Of a DNA stretch of 64,000 nucleotides, positions 53,387-62,897 are shown piece after piece (the stretch's first letter is position 1; each line of letters begins with the position of its first letter). Made by a program: the position numbers and the translations under genes. The stretch lies in sequence record OZ346228.1; one strand, 5' to 3'. The notes beneath the pieces were generated by a model, which saw only the letters and a program-made list of their open reading frames with translations, was not told the DNA's origin and did no database searches. The DNA comes from a phage.

Positions 53387-54670
53387 TCATTCAAGCACCT
53401 CCCAAGTGTCTGGGTTAACATTTCGGACGCAGATACCGACAGGGAATTGGTAATTGTTGTCTTCTGTCCTTGCTTGGTATTTGAAGGTGACAAACTTGCC
53501 GATCATTTCCTGCATCCTGTCATAGCTACGCTCCTCGTGCGTGCCTTTCATCTTCATTTTAACAACAACACCTTCCTTGTCAACACAGATAAGAACACCT
53601 TCATCATTCTTATCTTTCTCAACGTCAATAACTTTCACCTCTGCGTCGTTGAACTTTTTCCATTTCAATGCTTCAGATGTTCGCTGACCATACTCATATT
53701 TACCGCAGAAATTACGCATGATAGTACCTTCATATCCTTCGGACATGAATATACCAACAGATTCTTCGCAATGATCAACTGTGTACGCAAGCTCTGCGTC
53801 AACAACCTTGATATGATCAAGCATCAGAGTGGTAACGGTATCCTCTGCATCCATAAGATCCTTGCAGCGTCCAGACTCTGTTTCTGGATCCCACCACACC
53901 TTGTCGCTAGGAATATCAAAAATGTGATACTCCAGATCGTAGCTACAGTATCCACCGTAACGCAAATCATCACGAACAGGCTCAACATCGACAGGAATAT
54001 CTACCTTGTTGAAGTTTTTGTATGTTGATAAGCCTGCCTTAATTGCTGCATGACGGCGTTTTTTATCTGCCTCATAGTCTTTATCGATCTCGGCCTGAAT
54101 CTCTTCCTGTGTGCGCCACCGTTTAGCAAGAGACACTATTTTCTGCAAAGGAAGACCATGAATGTATAGTTCCCCATCAAGTTGTTTAATCCCAGTGGTA
54201 GAATGGAAAGAACGAAGTTGCTCTAAAAGCTTTCCTTGAATAGGGTAGGACTTATTACCACGGGAAATAAATTTAGGCTCACCATTTTGGAAAACAACAA
54301 GCAGACGAAGGCCATCTAACTTACGCAAGATCCAGCAAGGTAATTTAAGTGCCTTGCCACGCTTCAGGTAGTCATGCACCAGCATAGGTAAAAGATCAAC
54401 ACCCTGCTCGCAATCTTCCATGTTTTCAACATACCCCAGACGGACTTGTTTTTCCCACTTGCTGATAGCCTCAAGCTCGGCCTGTTGCTCAGCTGTAGTC
54501 TCGTTGGCACGACCTACGTTTTTAGGTGTACATACCGTCTCTTTGTACTGCAATTTACCGTCAAGCTTGCCAAACTCTACGATAACCTTTTCGCCATCAG
54601 TGAATACTTTCCACTGTTGGTAGCTGCCATCTTTGTTCAGTGCGTACAGTGTTGTTTTGATTTGATGCAT
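53387..54670 (-). CDS. ATP-dependent DNA ligase
   Basis: Motif I KLDG, motif IV-like EGTIMR, motif V-like KWKK; 427 aa. Confidence 0.7.
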   Translation of the reverse strand: MHQIKTTLYALNKDGSYQQWKVFTDGEKVIVEFGKLDGKLQYKETVCTPKNVGRANETTAEQQAELEAISKWEKQVRLGYVENMEDCEQGVDLLPMLVHDYLKRGKALKLPCWILRKLDGLRLLVVFQNGEPKFISRGNKSYPIQGKLLEQLRSFHSTTGIKQLDGELYIHGLPLQKIVSLAKRWRTQEEIQAEIDKDYEADKKRRHAAIKAGLSTYKNFNKVDIPVDVEPVRDDLRYGGYCSYDLEYHIFDIPSDKVWWDPETESGRCKDLMDAEDTVTTLMLDHIKVVDAELAYTVDHCEESVGIFMSEGYEGTIMRNFCGKYEYGQRTSEALKWKKFNDAEVKVIDVEKDKNDEGVLICVDKEGVVVKMKMKGTHEERSYDRMQEMIGKFVTFKYQARTEDNNYQFPVGICVRNVNPDTWEVLE

Positions 54671-54939
54671 TACTCGGCCTCTTCCTTAAAAATTTTAAAC
54701 ATCTCTTCTTTACTCATTACCAACCAGTCTCCCATAAAGTCAACTAACCAATCTCCCTGGTACAAAACCAAGTTGCCAAACGGCTCAACAAGCTCACACA
54801 TGCGACGAATATCTCTGGTCCGAACAGGTGACGATGTAAACACACCTGTATCAATCCACCGTTGCAGATCAGATACTGATGAAGAGCTTCCATCAAACTG
54901 GTGTGCTTCTACAGGTTTAGCAAGATTAAATAACGGCAT
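54670..54939 (-). CDS. hypothetical protein
   Basis: ORF. Confidence 0.45.
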   Translation of the reverse strand: MPLFNLAKPVEAHQFDGSSSSVSDLQRWIDTGVFTSSPVRTRDIRRMCELVEPFGNLVLYQGDWLVDFMGDWLVMSKEEMFKIFKEEAE

Positions 54940-55234
54940 TGCAGTCCTCCTTCTGTAGTAGGTCTTTTATAGGATAAACAAGTAAGTGTGGATCGGAATA
55001 ACGTATAGTCCTATTCTGCCACACTATGAACTTTATTACAACCAAATTTACAATATCTTTATCACCATGTAGCCCAACACACACATTTGTCCATATTTTG
55101 TGGTTGAAGATCTTGCTATCGATGTAGATTTTAGTGTCAAACTTATCTTCCATTCTACCTATAAGTTTGATCAGCTCCTTCATCTGGTCGCCAAACACAG
55201 CATCTTTTTCAAGATCTCTGGAATGCTTGTACAT
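54926..55234 (-). CDS. hypothetical protein
   Basis: ORF. Confidence 0.45.
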   Translation of the reverse strand: MYKHSRDLEKDAVFGDQMKELIKLIGRMEDKFDTKIYIDSKIFNHKIWTNVCVGLHGDKDIVNLVVIKFIVWQNRTIRYSDPHLLVYPIKDLLQKEDCNAVI

Positions 55235-55296
55235 AACTAACTACCTCACTGCATACTTTCCATAATAAGTAAAGCCGGGTAATCCCGGCTATGTTG

Positions 55297-56010
55297 TTAA
55301 ATATACTCTGTTACATCCTTGAAGCTCGAAGGCTTCATAATCTTACCTTTACTGTCAAGGAATATAATAACTTTATTACCGTTGTAGAACTCCTCTTTAG
55401 CAACGAAACCTTCGTAGCGACCACCAAAACGACGCTCAAGATCTTCAATCTCTAACTCTATGAGCAATTCAGTAGACATATCTGCACTGGCACCGTGAGA
55501 ATATCGTAGATGGTTGATCCGTGCAAACTTGCTGTCATTAGATTTGAGAACCTTCCGCATCATCCCACACACATCGCCGCGAAGCTGGAACAGCAAAGCT
55601 GTTGACAACTCCGCTAAGCGGTAAGCTGACGCTCTTTGCTTGGATGTGTTTTTCGCAGCGATCAGTGTATCATAGAACTCACCGATCTTGAACTTAAGAC
55701 CTCGTGGATTATCAAACAGGTTTGACCACTTTTCGTGATTATCATTAACAAGATAAGCGGCATAACTTGTGACAACGTGAAGATCGCAGGCCTCTTTTAG
55801 CAGGTGATCTCCACCATCACCTTTCTCCAGCTCTTCCAAAACCTCATTGAACTCTTCCTCAATGAAGCTAAGCTGTAATTCGAATGGTGTGTATGATTTT
55901 TTCACTTTAGCTGCCACACGGTTCCAGTTTTCCACCCAGTTGGCAGACCAAAGGTAGTTTTCAGGCTGAGACAGTTTTTCCAGGTTGTCGATCAGTTTAG
56001 TATTCAGCAT
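55297..56010 (-). CDS. MazG-like all-alpha NTP pyrophosphohydrolase, tentative
   Basis: FIEEEFNEVLEELEKG...EACDLHVV resembles the MazG/dUTPase-like EExxE...D metal-binding motif. Confidence 0.4.
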   Translation of the reverse strand: MLNTKLIDNLEKLSQPENYLWSANWVENWNRVAAKVKKSYTPFELQLSFIEEEFNEVLEELEKGDGGDHLLKEACDLHVVTSYAAYLVNDNHEKWSNLFDNPRGLKFKIGEFYDTLIAAKNTSKQRASAYRLAELSTALLFQLRGDVCGMMRKVLKSNDSKFARINHLRYSHGASADMSTELLIELEIEDLERRFGGRYEGFVAKEEFYNGNKVIIFLDSKGKIMKPSSFKDVTEYI

Positions 56011-56023
56011 TAAAGGTCTCCTT

Positions 56024-56785
56024 TTAAAGTTCCATAAAGTTTTCTACAGTTTCAATAAATGCTTTATCAGAGAAAGCGTCAACAGCACCGTTAAACCATA
56101 CAGGGATCCCGCGATCCTCATATTGATAAAGGTCGCTACGTGAAATGCCACTCCCATCTGCACTCTGCGAGTCATACTTGTTTACAATCAGCAGTTTTGT
56201 GCCTTTACAAGTAGCAGGAAACAATTCCCAGTTAAAATTAATAACTGTGTTAGAACAACCTACTAGGATCACCATATCATTGCTTGTGAGAGATGTCAAC
56301 AGGTCATACATGTCTGTATACTTAGGAGCAACCTCACCGAAGAACACTACATTGGGCTTAACCCAGGTATACTTGCCTGTATCTACCTCCGTGTATCCGA
56401 TATTTTTAATTACATCATTACCTTCAGCATCTTCGTAGGTGATTTCAGGCAAATACCCGTGGACATGTAAAATATCTTCATGTTTTACACCAGCACGCTC
56501 CAGCAAATCATCTACATTGGTGGTAAGGTTGATCACACGACCAGACCAGCGGGAATACCACTCAGCGATCCGAAGATGTGCAAGGTTAGGATCAACACTG
56601 CCCAGAGCTACACGACGTGCATTGTAAAAGTCATGCACCTTATAGTAGTTCTTGGCAAAGGTGTGGATGTTGCACACCTCATCGATGCTGAAATTCTCCC
56701 ACATTGCAGTGCTACCAGATCGGAAAGTGGGAATACCAGATTCAGCGCTCAAACCAGCACCGGAGATAATAATCAGTCGTCGCAT
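56024..56785 (-). CDS. Sir2-family (sirtuin-like) NAD-dependent protein
   Basis: N-terminal GAGLSAESGIPTFRSG matches the Sir2 NAD-binding signature. Confidence 0.7.
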   Translation of the reverse strand: MRRLIIISGAGLSAESGIPTFRSGSTAMWENFSIDEVCNIHTFAKNYYKVHDFYNARRVALGSVDPNLAHLRIAEWYSRWSGRVINLTTNVDDLLERAGVKHEDILHVHGYLPEITYEDAEGNDVIKNIGYTEVDTGKYTWVKPNVVFFGEVAPKYTDMYDLLTSLTSNDMVILVGCSNTVINFNWELFPATCKGTKLLIVNKYDSQSADGSGISRSDLYQYEDRGIPVWFNGAVDAFSDKAFIETVENFMEL

Positions 56786-56793
56786 AAGTGTCC

Positions 56794-57144
56794 TCAGTAG
56801 ATGTTTTGTTTAATCTCTATTCCAAACTTCTTGAATGAGTCAGCAGCAAGCATAAATTTACGAGCTGCCGATGGATTAGAAGTATGCACGAAAATAATCA
56901 CGTTGTCAATAAGTGGTGGCTTTCCGAATACAAGTTTCTCCTCTAGCGCAGAGAAGCAGTCGTACCCTTCAAGCACTTCACCTAGATCATTGTCAAAATA
57001 CCACTCAGATACGCGTCTGTAGAGCTTTCTCTTATCATTAAGAAAATCCATAAACTCAGAAGAATTCTTTAGCCACAGAGCGTCTGGGAGTCCATAATCT
57101 GACGGATCTCTAAAATCATCAAGCCACACAATCCACTTCTTCAT
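56794..57144 (-). CDS. hypothetical protein
   Basis: ORF overlapping RNA ligase stop. Confidence 0.45.
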   Translation of the reverse strand: MKKWIVWLDDFRDPSDYGLPDALWLKNSSEFMDFLNDKRKLYRRVSEWYFDNDLGEVLEGYDCFSALEEKLVFGKPPLIDNVIIFVHTSNPSAARKFMLAADSFKKFGIEIKQNIY

Positions 57145-58076
57145 TGCATATAGTCCTCGTTGTGGAAATAGTAGTCCAGTATCTCACGACGCTCCTGCTC
57201 TAATAAGCAATTCCACACATCTTCTGTATAGTTGCTACGAATAAATTTTACCATACCGTAAAACTCTTCGTCAACACGTTTAAAGATATCATCATCCCAA
57301 ATCTTCCAAGCTTTACCCCTCATTACTGCCTTCCGTGCCAGATAGTATGGAGACTTGATCTTCAGCTGCAGATCATAAGGGTAGTAAGGCTTACGAATCA
57401 TATACCCTTCACCTCTTGTTTCTGCAGCTAATTCTTTTGCATAGCTGAACGGAATTTCACGCACAGTGTTAGGACGTTTTGCACCAAGGTATTTGGCAAT
57501 CCCATCTAAAGCTGCTTCTGGTAGCATTATTCCAGAATCATTATATCTGCAACCTATCAAATATGCGCCATGGTCTTCTTGAACAATATGCGGATCTGAA
57601 GGGTGACAAATTTCAAACATGAATGTCATGTTTTCATTGCCCATAACCTTCTTGATAAGATCTAAATTACCACATTGCTCTTGGATGGTTTCCTTTGCAA
57701 GGTTACAATATGGAGAATCAAGAGACCCGGTTGTTGAGAACAATAGGTCACCTTTATGAGATGATACCACACCAAGGAATCCGTTCTTTTTCTCTACCGC
57801 AGTCACAAGCTTATTGTCAGGCAGGTTGGTGGAGTTTTCTCCCAAGTTAAACACTTTTGTGAAGGGCCATGCCACAACATTTCCTTCATTACCTACAACA
57901 ATGCCTCGGCACTCCAGTAAACGAGGGGACAAATGCCATAAATTGTTGTAAAATACTTTTCTAGCATATTTATAGATCTTTAACCCGAGATCTGGGTAAT
58001 ACCTACTGGTTACAAGACCTTTGTCAACTAGGTCGTCTGCATTAAAATACTTCATTATATGTTCCTCATTTGTCAT
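57141..58076 (-). CDS. RNA ligase, T4 Rnl1-like
   Basis: LLECRGI, KVFNLGEN, motif I EKKNG, motif IV EGYMIRK, motif V LQLKIK colinear with T4 RNA ligase 1. Confidence 0.8.
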   Translation of the reverse strand: MTNEEHIMKYFNADDLVDKGLVTSRYYPDLGLKIYKYARKVFYNNLWHLSPRLLECRGIVVGNEGNVVAWPFTKVFNLGENSTNLPDNKLVTAVEKKNGFLGVVSSHKGDLLFSTTGSLDSPYCNLAKETIQEQCGNLDLIKKVMGNENMTFMFEICHPSDPHIVQEDHGAYLIGCRYNDSGIMLPEAALDGIAKYLGAKRPNTVREIPFSYAKELAAETRGEGYMIRKPYYPYDLQLKIKSPYYLARKAVMRGKAWKIWDDDIFKRVDEEFYGMVKFIRSNYTEDVWNCLLEQERREILDYYFHNEDYMQ

Positions 58077-58118
58077 TTTGTCAGTCTATCCTGCCACACA
58101 AATAACCTAGTGTCAACA

Positions 58119-58147
58119 CTTGAAATTAACAAAACAGTTAGGTATAC
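58119..58147 (+). promoter_or_regulatory. sigma70-type promoter in divergent intergenic region
   Basis: TTGAAA, 17 nt spacer, TATACT. Confidence 0.6.
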
Positions 58148-58176
58148 TACCGTTGAAATTAAAACGGAGGGTCGCT

Positions 58177-58587
58177 ATGTCTAAAATGCTATATATCGTG
58201 CGTGGTCTACCAGGGTCTGGCAAATCAACACTGGCAAATGAGCTATCTTTAGAGGGTCTGTATCCACATTTTGAGAACGACATGTTCTGGTATGACGATG
58301 ACGGCAATTACAACTGGGATGCAAGTAAAGTAACACTCGCAGCAAAATGGTGCAAAGATAACGTAGAAGATATGATGCGTATGGGATACGACCGTATCGT
58401 GGTAAGTAATACGTTTACAAAAGAAAAACATGTGCAGGAATATGTTGACATGGCAATCACTCACGGGTATAGTTATACCGTGATCGTGGTTGAAAACCGC
58501 CACGGTAATAAAAGCATTCATGATGTTCCAGACAAGGTTGTGGATCGTATGGAACGCCAGCTTAAAAACTGCATTAAACTTAAATGA
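58177..58587 (+). CDS. P-loop polynucleotide kinase-like protein (T4 Pnk kinase-domain-like)
   Basis: RBS ggaggg; Walker A GLPGSGKST; N-terminus parallels T4 Pnk MKKIILTIGCPGSGKSTWA. Confidence 0.6.
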   Translation: MSKMLYIVRGLPGSGKSTLANELSLEGLYPHFENDMFWYDDDGNYNWDASKVTLAAKWCKDNVEDMMRMGYDRIVVSNTFTKEKHVQEYVDMAITHGYSYTVIVVENRHGNKSIHDVPDKVVDRMERQLKNCIKLK

Positions 58588-58594
58588 GGAATGT

Positions 58595-59149
58595 ATGAAA
58601 TACTTTGTAACAAGCGACACACACTTTCTCCACCAGCGGGTCATGGAGTTTGATTCATGTCAAAAACACAGATCTCAGTATGATCACAATCTTGACAGTA
58701 TGAATGCAGGAATCATCGCCGAGTGGAACTCTGTTGTGTCACCTGCAGACACTGTGTTCCACTTGGGAGATATTGCGTGCACTAATGATAAGAATATCAA
58801 CAACTTACTTCCAGATATTCTAAATATGTTGAACGGACATATTATTCTTGTTCGTGGCAACCATGACACAAGGACGACTGTCAGAATTATGAAAGAGTTC
58901 GGTCATGAGGTTGTAGATTATTACGAGCTTCGCCACAACAAGAATTTGATCTGTATGAGCCATTACCAGTTTGCAAAGTGGAACAGAAAGCCTCACGGAT
59001 CAGTCCAACTGTTCGGTCATGCTCACGGAACCACACAACAGTTGTTTGGCAGGCAGCTTGATGTCGGTTGGGATGTGTGGGGGAGACTCTTACCATTAGA
59101 AGAGGCATACCGTATTGCAATGAGTTTTGATATTGACAGCAGGGAGTAA
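58595..59149 (+). CDS. calcineurin-like metallophosphoesterase
   Basis: SDTHF, GDIACTND and VRGNHD motifs; RBS gagga before ATG (MKYFVTSD...). Confidence 0.75.
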   Translation: MKYFVTSDTHFLHQRVMEFDSCQKHRSQYDHNLDSMNAGIIAEWNSVVSPADTVFHLGDIACTNDKNINNLLPDILNMLNGHIILVRGNHDTRTTVRIMKEFGHEVVDYYELRHNKNLICMSHYQFAKWNRKPHGSVQLFGHAHGTTQQLFGRQLDVGWDVWGRLLPLEEAYRIAMSFDIDSRE

Positions 59150-59196
59150 TCCCTGCTATTTTAAAGAAAATTGCCACACAAGGAGAATCAGGAGAT

Positions 59197-59547
59197 ATGA
59201 AAGATGGGGATAAGCTGCTATATCTTAAAGTCCCCCTTGAAATACTATCTATGTCAAAAGTTTTGAATGACACAACTGGGGAGGTTGTTGTTCTTGACTT
59301 GTATGACAAGATCGTATACTGCTACCTGCACAACTGGTATAAGCTTGGAGGAAATTCACGCTTCACACCAAGCACAAGGAAAATTGCAGCAGATGTTGGG
59401 ATAAAGAAAACAAAAGCAGCAGCGTGCGTTAAAACTTTAGAATGTGCAGGAGTGGTTGAAACATCCACACAAGGGAGAGGTAAAAGATGCACATTTTCCA
59501 AAGTTTTGCCACCAGAAGAAGTTATTCGGATGTCAACAACTGGTTAG
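59197..59547 (+). CDS. putative DNA-binding regulator (winged-helix-like), tentative
   Basis: HTH-like segment STRKIAADVGIKKTKAAACVKTLECAGVV; followed by palindromic operator array. Confidence 0.4.
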   Translation: MKDGDKLLYLKVPLEILSMSKVLNDTTGEVVVLDLYDKIVYCYLHNWYKLGGNSRFTPSTRKIAADVGIKKTKAAACVKTLECAGVVETSTQGRGKRCTFSKVLPPEEVIRMSTTG

Positions 59548-59619
59548 ACCAGTAAAAACTTAAATATCTGTACTATAAGGATTCGTATGTTTTATGTTCG
59601 CCATGGAACGGATACTATT

Positions 59620-62084: not shown

Positions 62085-62159
62085 GCCCTGTTAGCTTAGT
62101 GGATAAAGCAGCGGCCTTCTAAGCCGTTGACACTGGTTCGAGTCCAGTACGGGGTGCCA
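62085..62159 (+). tRNA. tRNA-Arg (anticodon TCT)
   Basis: Manual fold: D stem GCTT/AAGC, anticodon loop CTTCTAA, T loop TTCGAGT, 3' CCA encoded; acceptor stem has two G-U pairs. Confidence 0.7.
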
Positions 62160-62163
62160 AATT

Positions 62164-62250
62164 GGGGAGTTATCCCGTAGAGGTAGCGGTGTAGACTGTA
62201 AATCTATTGTCATTGCGACTCGGGTGGTTCGACTCCACCACTCCCCACCA
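62164..62250 (+). tRNA. tRNA-Tyr (anticodon GTA), long variable arm
   Basis: Acceptor GGGGAGT/ACTCCCC, anticodon loop CTGTAAA, T loop TTCGACT, CCA encoded. Confidence 0.8.
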
Positions 62251-62364
62251 AATTTATATTTTTAGATGCATAAATAATACAGATAATGGCATTGATATTT
62301 ATCGTCGTTTATACTAGTCACTAACTGCTCGAAAATCAGTGTCATTATCAGTATTATTTATAAA

Positions 62365-62455
62365 GGAGGGTAGGGAGCAATGGTGCTCAATCGGTCTTGA
62401 AAACCGTCCCGTTGAGGATGACTCGATGATGGTTCGATTCCATTACTCTCCGCCA
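62365..62455 (+). tRNA. tRNA-Ser (anticodon TGA), long variable arm
   Basis: Acceptor GGAGGGT/ACTCTCC, anticodon loop CTTGAAA, T loop TTCGATT, CCA encoded. Confidence 0.7.
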
Positions 62456-62553
62456 CATTGTTGACCTTGTAATTAAGCGAAAGTCGGAAGCAGAACCGGA
62501 TTATCAAATGTTACAGTCGTCATCGCCGACTAGCAACATGGTCAACATACTGA

Positions 62554-62652
62554 GCTAGGTAAGCCCTTTGGCAAGGGCGAGGATTTTTAATCCTGAAAAT
62601 AGACGAGGTAGTCGTTGAATACATAGGTGGTTCGATTCCATCACCTAGCACC
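62554..62652 (+). tRNA. atypical tRNA-like gene; anticodon loop TTTTTAA (Lys-TTT-like), about 28 nt extra between anticodon and T arms; may be a pseudo-tRNA
   Basis: Acceptor GCTAGGT/ACCTAGC, D arm GCCC-TTTGGCAA-GGGC, T loop TTCGATT; variable region far longer than class I; CCA not fully encoded. Confidence 0.35.
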
Positions 62653-62657
62653 TTTTT

Positions 62658-62733
62658 GCTGATGTAGCACAATCGGTAGTGCAATTGATTTGTAATCAAT
62701 AGGTTGTAGGTTCAAGTCCTGCCATCAGCACCA
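62658..62733 (+). tRNA. tRNA-Thr (anticodon TGT)
   Basis: Acceptor GCTGATG/CATCAGC, anticodon stem-loop ATTGA-TTTGTAA-TCAAT, T loop TTCAAGT, CCA encoded. Confidence 0.8.
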
Positions 62734-62734
62734 A

Positions 62735-62809
62735 GGCCCTGTAGCTGGAAGGTTCAAGCAAGCGACTCATAATCGCCAGACGGTGGTTCAATTCCACCCA
62801 GGGCCACCA
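62735..62809 (+). tRNA. tRNA-Met/Ile2-type (anticodon CAT)
   Basis: Acceptor GGCCCTG/CAGGGCC, anticodon loop CTCATAA, T loop TTCAATT, CCA encoded. Confidence 0.8.
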
Positions 62810-62820
62810 AATAGTAAATA

Positions 62821-62897
62821 CTCCGCGTAGCTCAGCTTGGTAGAGCGCCTGATTTGGGATCAGGAGGTCGAGTGTTCGAATCACTCCGTGGAGACCA
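62821..62897 (+). tRNA. tRNA-Pro (anticodon TGG)
   Basis: C1-G72 acceptor, D stem GCTC/GAGC, anticodon stem-loop CCTGA-TTTGGGA-TCAGG, T loop TTCGAAT, CCA encoded. Confidence 0.8.

Follow-up and report, generated by a model that had tools for sequence, protein, structure and literature searches.

In this study, we analysed a 64,000-nucleotide stretch of phage DNA (sequence record OZ346228.1; the window) and found at positions 57141-59149 genes for an Rnl1-type RNA ligase, a polynucleotide-kinase-like 5'-kinase and a binuclear metallophosphoesterase, which probably constitute a phage module for heal-and-seal RNA repair of the ATP-dependent 5'-phosphate/3'-hydroxyl type. We give this reading, together with the enzymatic steps, the tRNA substrate and the opposing nuclease that we infer for it, a probability of roughly 0.7. 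The three proteins belong to the families named, their catalytic motifs are intact, and their genes are linked across viral genomes, up to the fusion of kinase and ligase into one gene. The three genes are:

57141-58076, - strand: Rnl1-type ATP-dependent RNA ligase; open reading frame (ORF) of 311 amino acids (aa); Pfam PF09511, E 1e-14; phrog_562
58177-58587, + strand: polynucleotide-kinase-like P-loop 5'-kinase; 136 aa; AAA_33, E 5.9e-11; phrog_505
58595-59149, + strand: binuclear metallophosphoesterase, aq_1665 type; 184 aa; Metallophos and Metallophos_2

An original prediction for this DNA had described an Rnl1-like ligase on the - strand facing a kinase and a calcineurin-type phosphoesterase on the + strand. 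All three ORFs exist at these positions and score far above chance level against the family profiles of Pfam and PHROG, which confirms this description. Over the region 56700-59600, identity to Escherichia phage isim (MN850597), a Vequintavirus, is 100%, and about 100 further Vequintavirus (rV5-like) genomes match it at 97-99.9%; phage V5 shows 97.4% identity over the same region. GenBank records of the BASEL collection already name the trio 'RNA ligase', 'polynucleotide kinase' and 'putative phosphoesterase'. The prediction was a correct re-discovery of a published one, and its novelty is low, since a computational description (Iyer et al., 2022) and annotation of the system already exist. 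What this study adds are counts of the linkage, the kinase-ligase fusions, the pairing of kinase and phosphoesterase with Rnl1- or Rnl2-like ligases, the placement of the phosphoesterase in the aq_1665 type and its recognition as the constant partner of the module.

Family membership and catalytic motifs

The ligase scored 55.4 bits against Pfam RNA_lig_T4_1 (PF09511; cut-off 28.3) and matched phrog_562, a family filed under 'tail', with an E-value of 1.9e-65. Against TIGR02308, the NCBIfam equivalog of T4 RnlA, it reached 38.4 bits, far below the cut-off of 242.25; by these scores, it is classed as a member of the broad Rnl1 family and not as a T4 RnlA equivalog. Its start is most likely ATG 58055, which gives a protein of 304 aa, because the homologue consensus MKFNVDDLV matches from residue 8 onward; GAGGAA at 58067-58062 precedes this codon. 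Single-sequence searches of the PDB with the ligase and the kinase gave noise only, and a ligase family profile of 34 homologues found T4 Rnl1 as its sole match (E 7e-12). Invariant in the 34 homologues are R57, K74, F76, K96, G99, E155, E223, G224, K239 and K241, which align to R54, K75, F77, K99, G102, E159, E227, G228, K240 and K242 of T4 Rnl1, respectively. The nucleotidyltransferase motifs I (K96-x-N-G99), III (E155), IV (E223-G224) and V (K239-x-K241) are all intact. Mutagenesis in the Shuman laboratory reportedly found Arg54, Lys75, Phe77 and Lys119 of T4 Rnl1 to be essential; ten of the 11 T4 Rnl1 residues that we take to be essential are invariant in the ligase family. Judged by these motifs, the ligase should be catalytically competent. 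In Foldseek, its AlphaFold model (predicted local distance difference test, pLDDT, 90) was matched equally well by Rnl3, T4 Rnl1 and the ligase domains of fungal Trl1 (E ~1e-11, template modelling (TM) score ~0.6), and Rnl5, Rnl2 and DNA ligases ranked below these. The hidden Markov model (HMM) alignment to T4 Rnl1 ends at motif V, and the helical C-terminal region of the model spans only ~65 aa (residues 243-305). The ligase forms a separate, short clade within the Rnl1/Trl1 group.

The kinase ORF called mechanically begins at an upstream TTG (58120); the real start is ATG 58177, which follows a Shine-Dalgarno sequence GGAGGG at 58166-58171. Apart from AAA_33, the protein matched phrog_505 'polynucleotide kinase' (E 1.3e-10), and in the Pfam and PHROG searches it consisted of a single AAA_33 domain with no HAD-type DxDxT phosphatase domain. 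The family is large (8000 candidates scored) and holds invariant the P-loop GxxGxGK[ST] (G10, K16, S17, T18), D35 and an ENRH motif. T4 Pnk was the top match of the family profile in the PDB (E 1.1e-5), with D35 aligned to T4 Asp35 (1LY1). Pnkp1 of the Pnkp1-Rnl-Hen1 complex (E 2.1e-5) and the Clostridium thermocellum Pnkp kinase (E 1.4e-4) came next, and seryl-tRNA(Sec) kinase was also among the best. Adenylate, shikimate and gluconate kinases aligned over the P-loop only, the adenylate kinases with E > 0.01. The AlphaFold model (pLDDT 84) gave the same picture: its top Foldseek matches were 4GP6 (C. thermocellum Pnkp kinase), 1LY1 and 2IA5 with TM scores of 0.6-0.67, whereas nucleoside monophosphate (NMP) kinases scored lower (0.4-0.5). 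The resemblance to T4 Pnk that had been proposed from the sequence was therefore borne out, with T4 Pnk on top of the profile search and a TM score of ~0.65 for the fold. The protein is not a deoxynucleoside monophosphate or adenylate-type kinase by either measure; in profile and fold it is nearest to the polynucleotide kinases and not to NMP/adenylate kinases, by modest margins. In T4 Pnk, Arg38 and Arg126 contact the acceptor and ATP; R108 of the ENRH motif is invariant and lies outside the T4 alignment, and it could take the role of a lid arginine.

For the phosphoesterase, the mechanical ORF start at 58490 is likewise an upstream TTG, and the real start is ATG 58595 with GAGGAA just upstream. 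The protein matches both Metallophos_2 and Metallophos above the Pfam cut-off, as well as phrog_547 (E 1.5e-51). Five metal-ligand motifs are invariant in 36 homologues (D8-x-H10, G58-D59, G88-N89-H90-D91, H123 and G141-H142-x-H144). The family profile matched 1XM7 (Aquifex aq_1665) in the PDB with an E-value of 9.5e-28 and, more weakly, the diesterases GpdQ, YfcE, MJ0936 and Rv0805; neither a Pnkp phosphatase nor lambda phosphatase matched at E <= 0.1. By its profile, the enzyme is therefore placed in the aq_1665 type and not in the Pnkp/lambda-phosphatase type. The original prediction held that the end-healing phosphatase is a metallophosphoesterase rather than a HAD domain, as in bacterial Pnkp, and is encoded by a separate gene. 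The metallophosphoesterase and its separate gene are confirmed; the likeness to bacterial Pnkp applies at the superfamily level only. A relationship to the family of 2',3'-phosphatases was likewise borne out in part, as the metal motifs are intact and the solved relatives include phosphodiesterases, whereas the Pnkp-phosphatase clade was not matched.

Linkage across viral genomes

A sample of 80 IMG/VR viral loci was chosen by the ligase alone (36-89% identity), and the ORFs of the sampled loci were annotated by HMMs built from our own alignments. The kinase was present in 73 of the 80 loci and lay within 1 kb of the ligase in 67, the phosphoesterase was present in 62 (within 1 kb in 52), and both were present in 59. 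The genes occurred in the orders phosphoesterase-ligase-kinase, kinase-ligase-phosphoesterase and ligase-phosphoesterase-kinase. Kinase and ligase even form a single ORF in 11 of the 80 loci, of which ten are complete (421-432 aa) and one is cut by the contig end. These fusion loci are:

L041, 7560-8825: kinase-ligase fusion
L043, 2209-3474: kinase-ligase fusion
L057, 7527-8825: kinase-ligase fusion
L047-L049, L052, L054, L058, L060 and L062: kinase-ligase fusions

In one fusion protein, Pfam recognised AAA_33 N-terminally and RNA_lig_T4_1 C-terminally. The fusion ORFs come from one clade of viral contigs, most of which carry a DNA ligase 1-4 kb downstream. HMM searches found no aq_1665-type phosphoesterase in the flanks of the fusion loci, and Pfam found no substitute phosphoesterase among seven neighbours of the L057 fusion gene.

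A further 79 viral loci were anchored on the kinase. Of these, 56 contained the phosphoesterase, 23 an Rnl1-like ligase and 20 an Rnl2-like ligase, and the kinase-phosphoesterase pair was also found adjoining PF09414 ligases in metagenomic contigs. Because the linkage survives rearrangement, fusion and exchange of the ligase type, the kinase and the phosphoesterase can be regarded as a 'healing' unit for a 'sealing' RNA ligase. The proposed RNA heal-and-seal module is thus supported by the linkage of ligase, kinase and phosphoesterase through rearranged gene orders and by the kinase-ligase fusion in one clade.

On the ligase strand, the following genes adjoin or lie near the trio:

56794-57144, - strand: cREC (cyclic-phosphate-processing receiver domain); 116 aa; PF20274, E 9.1e-14
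56024-56785, - strand: Sir2-family protein; 253 aa; PF02146, E 6.9e-28
55297-56010, - strand: MazG-like nucleotide pyrophosphohydrolase; 237 aa; phrog_671, E 5.7e-22
53387-54670, - strand: ATP-dependent DNA ligase; 2.5 kb from the RNA ligase

The start of the cREC gene overlaps the ligase stop by 4 bases. The protein scored 52.3 bits against PF20274 (cut-off 27), its near-invariant residues D9, D10, D51, D53 and K96 make up a receiver-like acidic pocket, and it is predicted to be a cyclic phosphodiesterase. The Sir2 protein has the conserved GAGxSxxSG and TTNVD motifs (NAD-binding) and the catalytic His109. It has no cysteines after His109, where sirtuins carry a Cys4 zinc module, and this fits the 'distinct clade of sirtuins' reported for such neighbourhoods (Iyer et al., 2022; PMC9503650). 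The MazG-like protein, recognised by its PHROG family, gave no match in a Pfam scan.

The cREC domain was defined by Iyer et al. (2021), who also noted its linkage to RNA ligases. A sirtuin-centred type 2 RNA-repair neighbourhood, with Escherichia phage V5 and Proteus phage Mydo as prototypes, was later described by Iyer, Burroughs, Anantharaman and Aravind (2022; Viruses 14:1977, PMC9503650, section 3.7.3). Its gene set comprises a sirtuin, a T4-like tRNA ligase, cREC, a nucleotide kinase, a hydrolase of the MazG superfamily and a calcineurin-like phosphoesterase. All six genes are found here between 55297 and 59149, with no substantive difference in gene content. The module had originally been delimited to 57141-59149: the trio stands, and the boundary does not, since the cREC, Sir2 and MazG-like genes (55297-57144) also belong to the RNA repair module. 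Among the ligase-anchored loci, Sir2 and cREC each occurred in 11 of 80 and MazG in 13, all on contigs of ~95-150 kb, and only in this lineage does the MazG-like gene co-occur with Sir2. The trio is the widespread core, and Sir2, cREC and MazG are a lineage-specific addition. The phosphoesterase was called occasional in the type 2 neighbourhood (Iyer et al., 2022); here, it accompanied Sir2 in 11 of 11 loci and was present in most of the loci without Sir2. The phosphoesterase, and not Sir2 or cREC, is the constant partner of the module.

Proposed repair pathway and alternative roles

Genomic context suggests that the phosphoesterase removes 2',3'-cyclic or 3'-phosphates from RNA. In the proposed pathway, it would turn ends with a 2',3'-cyclic phosphate (or a 3'-/2'-phosphate) into a 2',3'-diol and thereby provide the 3'-OH. 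The Pnk-like kinase would then phosphorylate the 5'-OH to a 5'-phosphate, and the Rnl1-type ligase would be adenylylated at Lys96, move the AMP to the 5'-phosphate and seal the break. This trio core would suffice in most phages that have it, and the co-transcribed cREC, Sir2 and MazG-like genes of Vequintaviruses and related phages would provide an optional branch or clean-up. In such a Trl1/Tpt1-like branch, cREC would open the cyclic phosphate to a 2'-phosphate, and Sir2 would remove this 2'-phosphate with NAD+. It was proposed previously that 2',3'-cyclic phosphate ends are cleaned for ligation in these neighbourhoods, with the sirtuin acting like KptA/Tpt1 (Iyer et al., 2022; PMC9503650), and the module described here bears on the proposal that a sirtuin can do so. 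Alternatively, cREC, Sir2 and MazG may serve NAD+/ADP-ribose conflicts unrelated to repair. A wider interpretation is more tentative, and we rate it at somewhat less than even odds: the trio would be a widespread modular cassette in which kinase and phosphoesterase act as a portable 'healing' unit for Rnl1 and Rnl2 ligases, the aq_1665 family would be a dedicated healer of 2',3'-cyclic and 3'-phosphates, and Sir2 and cREC would offer a lineage-specific second, NAD+-dependent route for 2'-phosphate ends. Evidence of activity would provide the aq_1665 family of metallophosphoesterases, as well as the cREC domain, with a first function.

Defences that cleave tRNA, such as PrrC, RloC, PARIS, retron PtuAB, Cas13 and Schlafens, are now recognised as common. 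T4 Pnkp and Rnl1 counter the PrrC anticodon nuclease, which is experimentally established, and to our knowledge this pair is the only phage repair answer for which this is so. A seven-gene tRNA cluster (62085-62897) follows 3 kb downstream on the strand of the kinase. From this cluster and the T4 precedent, the likely substrates are tRNAs that host anticodon nucleases have cut, and the role of the module is probably counter-defence. Vequintaviruses, which are phage therapy candidates, carry both the tRNA cluster and the repair kit, and the nucleases defeated by the kit would help to explain host range.

One member of the cluster is an unusual tRNA of 97-99 nucleotides at 62554-62652 (+ strand), for which ARAGORN gives no assignment and reports a 4-nucleotide anticodon. 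It reaches 35.5 bits against Rfam tRNA when scanned within a larger region and gave no match when the short stretch was rerun alone. Its minimum-free-energy fold (z = -3.7) is a cloverleaf of five arms, with the additional stem-loop placed in the variable region. In the anticodon loop, UUUUUAA, the anticodon UUU (Lys) can be made out by eye, and the BASEL homologue is annotated as tRNA-Lys. PrrC and PARIS target tRNA-Lys(UUU), so that this class-II-like tRNA-Lys could serve as a nuclease-evading decoy or replacement.

Besides the type 2 neighbourhood, three known systems come close to the module and differ from it in distinct ways. Like T4 Pnkp and Rnl1, it combines an Rnl1-type ligase with the same catalytic residues and a Pnk-clade P-loop kinase with an aligned catalytic Asp, and it is encoded by a lytic Escherichia coli myovirus and dispensable in K-12. 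In T4, however, the 3' end is healed by a HAD (DxDxT) domain fused to the kinase, whereas here a separate binuclear metallophosphoesterase would take this part. The kinase here is minimal (136 aa), the ligase falls below the RnlA equivalog cut-off, and the cREC, Sir2 and MazG-like genes are added. With bacterial Pnkp/Hen1 systems (C. thermocellum Pnkp; Capnocytophaga Pnkp1-Rnl-Hen1) it shares the set of P-loop kinase, binuclear metallophosphoesterase and ATP-dependent ligase, and the kinase is structurally closest to that of C. thermocellum Pnkp (4GP6). There, the activities reside in one polypeptide; here, they are spread over three genes, the ligase is Rnl1-like and the phosphoesterase is of the aq_1665 type, and no methyltransferase domain, as a Hen1 2'-O-methyltransferase partner would have, was found in the ten genes scanned (53387-59547). 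Fungal and plant Trl1 and Tpt1 combine ligase, kinase and cyclic phosphodiesterase with subsequent NAD+-dependent removal of the 2'-phosphate. Trl1 ligase domains and T4 Rnl1 fit the ligase model equally well, kinase-ligase fusions occur in related phages, and the cREC and Sir2 branch has been likened to cyclic phosphodiesterase and Tpt1 (Iyer et al., 2022; PMC9503650). The domain order differs from Trl1, as does the phosphodiesterase fold (cREC or metallophosphoesterase instead of 2H). Sir2 is not a member of the Tpt1/KptA family, and its role as a 2'-phosphotransferase is purely hypothetical.

The HIDEN-SEQ study provides transposon data, the only experimental data that we found, for Bas54, a Vequintavirus whose genes have the order and lengths seen here. 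In E. coli K-12, the MazG-like, sirtuin, RNA ligase, kinase and phosphoesterase genes of Bas54 were scored 'non-essential' and cREC 'intermediate', as expected of conditional counter-defence genes. In the T4-like phage Bas37, insertions in the T4-type polynucleotide kinase gene bas37_0055 were depleted on the clinical isolate CFE299 (log2 fold change (log2FC) -1.90, adjusted p 0.00000), which suggests that CFE299 carries an RNA-cleaving defence that requires end-healing.

The same enzymology would also serve phage housekeeping, in which the trio matures or repairs phage transcripts or tRNAs (cut, for instance, by an RNase of the phage or the host), or circularises or joins RNAs. This is unlikely. 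The nearby tRNA cluster with its five-armed tRNA fits such a role, but five of the six genes are non-essential in Bas54 on K-12 and the sixth is intermediate, so that no essential maturation step depends on them; moreover, the extra arm of the odd tRNA lies in the variable region and not at an intron position.

Several observations weigh against RNA repair as the role of the module. In the ligase clade, the position of T4 Rnl1 Lys119 is held by an invariant Thr (T116), and the stretch after motif V is about half as long as in T4 Rnl1 (~65 aa vs ~130 aa), in which an all-helical C-terminal domain (~residues 255-374) confers tRNA specificity. The kinase has no counterpart of T4 Pnk Arg38, as its position 38 is aromatic (F/W/Y). 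The solved protein closest to the phosphoesterase, aq_1665, has no assigned function, and the Pnkp phosphatases are absent from its PDB matches. If the phosphoesterase fully heals 3' ends, the need for cREC and Sir2 is unexplained. A literature search turned up no experiment that tests the Vequintavirus genes or a role of phage sirtuins in RNA repair, and we know of no host in which the Vequintavirus repair genes matter. On the clinical isolate CFE311, insertions in the Bas54 repair genes were not depleted (log2FC +0.1 to +0.4, adjusted p >= 0.75). Finally, among 80 bacterial and archaeal genome loci with kinase homologues of 37-48% identity (L167-L246), the homologue stood alone in 76, with a phosphoesterase or ligase nearby in only 4, and no chromosomal RNA-repair operon was found around it in these loci. 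The stand-alone homologues, widespread and ~135 aa long, occur in Bacteroidota, Vibrio, Leptospira, Halomonadaceae and further groups. No conserved neighbourhood surrounds them, and the commonest genes beside them have unrelated housekeeping roles (of 112 neighbours, seven were homoserine O-succinyltransferase, five acyltransferase and four RF3). Because the cellular homologues stand alone, the kinase family does not serve RNA repair exclusively, and homology does not fix the substrate of the kinase.

These stand-alone homologues, which lack an RNA-repair context, would also fit a role in nucleotide or immune-signal metabolism, in which the substrate of the kinase would be nucleotides or a small molecule, the phosphoesterase would be a cyclic-nucleotide phosphodiesterase that breaks down host signals, and the ligase would be functionally separate. 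Among the solved relatives of the phosphoesterase are Rv0805, GpdQ, YfcE and MJ0936, which hydrolyse cyclic nucleotides and diesters, and NAD+ and nucleotides are what its Sir2 and MazG-like neighbours act on. Against this stand the kinase-ligase fusion proteins, the association of kinase and phosphoesterase with two RNA ligase families through many gene orders, and the closeness of the kinase to polynucleotide kinases in profile and fold, and we consider such a role improbable.

Less probable still is the processing of DNA ends, in which kinase and phosphoesterase would clean 5'-OH and 3'-phosphate ends for the DNA ligase at 53387-54670 in replication or repair. T4 Pnkp is known to act on DNA as well, the phosphoesterase has weak matches to the ligase-associated PdeM (TIGR04123, E 2.6e-4) and to 'Nuclease MPE' 6NVO (E 0.0034), and a DNA ligase is no more than 8 kb away from the RNA ligase in 42 of the 80 ligase-anchored loci. 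Within 1 kb, however, it is found in only 4, compared with 67 for the kinase and 52 for the phosphoesterase. The kinase is fused to RNA ligase, and the kinase-phosphoesterase pair also accompanies Rnl2-type RNA ligases. The Bas54 orthologue of the DNA ligase was scored 'non-essential' by HIDEN-SEQ.

That the ligase is mainly a tail-fibre attachment catalyst like T4 gp63/Rnl1, which has this second activity, is very improbable. Many GenBank records name it 'RNA ligase 1 and tail attachment protein', and phrog_562 is filed under 'tail', but this name is inherited by homology, and an assembly role leaves the linkage to kinase and phosphoesterase unexplained. In Bas54, the ligase gene accepted insertions at 56 of 60 TA sites, which argues against an essential role in attachment, whereas the N-terminal domain of T4 rnlA does not tolerate them.

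The divergent spacer and the downstream gene

Two further features concern the arrangement of the trio:

58077-58176: divergent spacer between ligase and kinase; 100 bp; promoter-like site; sign change of the GC skew
59197-59547, + strand: gene for a helix-turn-helix (HTH) protein, immediately downstream of the phosphoesterase gene; DUF6945/HTH_36; phrog_12838 'replication initiation protein', E 5e-80

The ligase and the kinase had been proposed to share a promoter-containing intergenic region. On the + strand, a sigma-70-like site TTGAAA-17-TATACT is present at 58120-58148, which supports this at the level of consensus. The - strand offers, by eye, a perfect -35 element TTGACA (58116-58111) with a weak TG-extended -10. 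From these consensus matches, a promoter in the spacer is plausible. The GC skew changes sign at this spacer, so that two transcription blocks genuinely diverge here. The divergent arrangement itself is present here as described, and it is peculiar to Vequintavirus: among the 80 ligase-anchored loci, only the rV5-like locus shows it, and the genes are co-directional in the others. A functional meaning of the divergent layout was therefore rejected.

In Bas54, the orthologue of the HTH gene had a mean of 13.6 insertion reads per site, compared with 140-400 in its neighbours, and was scored 'intermediate'. By these low read numbers, the HTH gene at 59197-59547 is more important to the phage than the repair genes.

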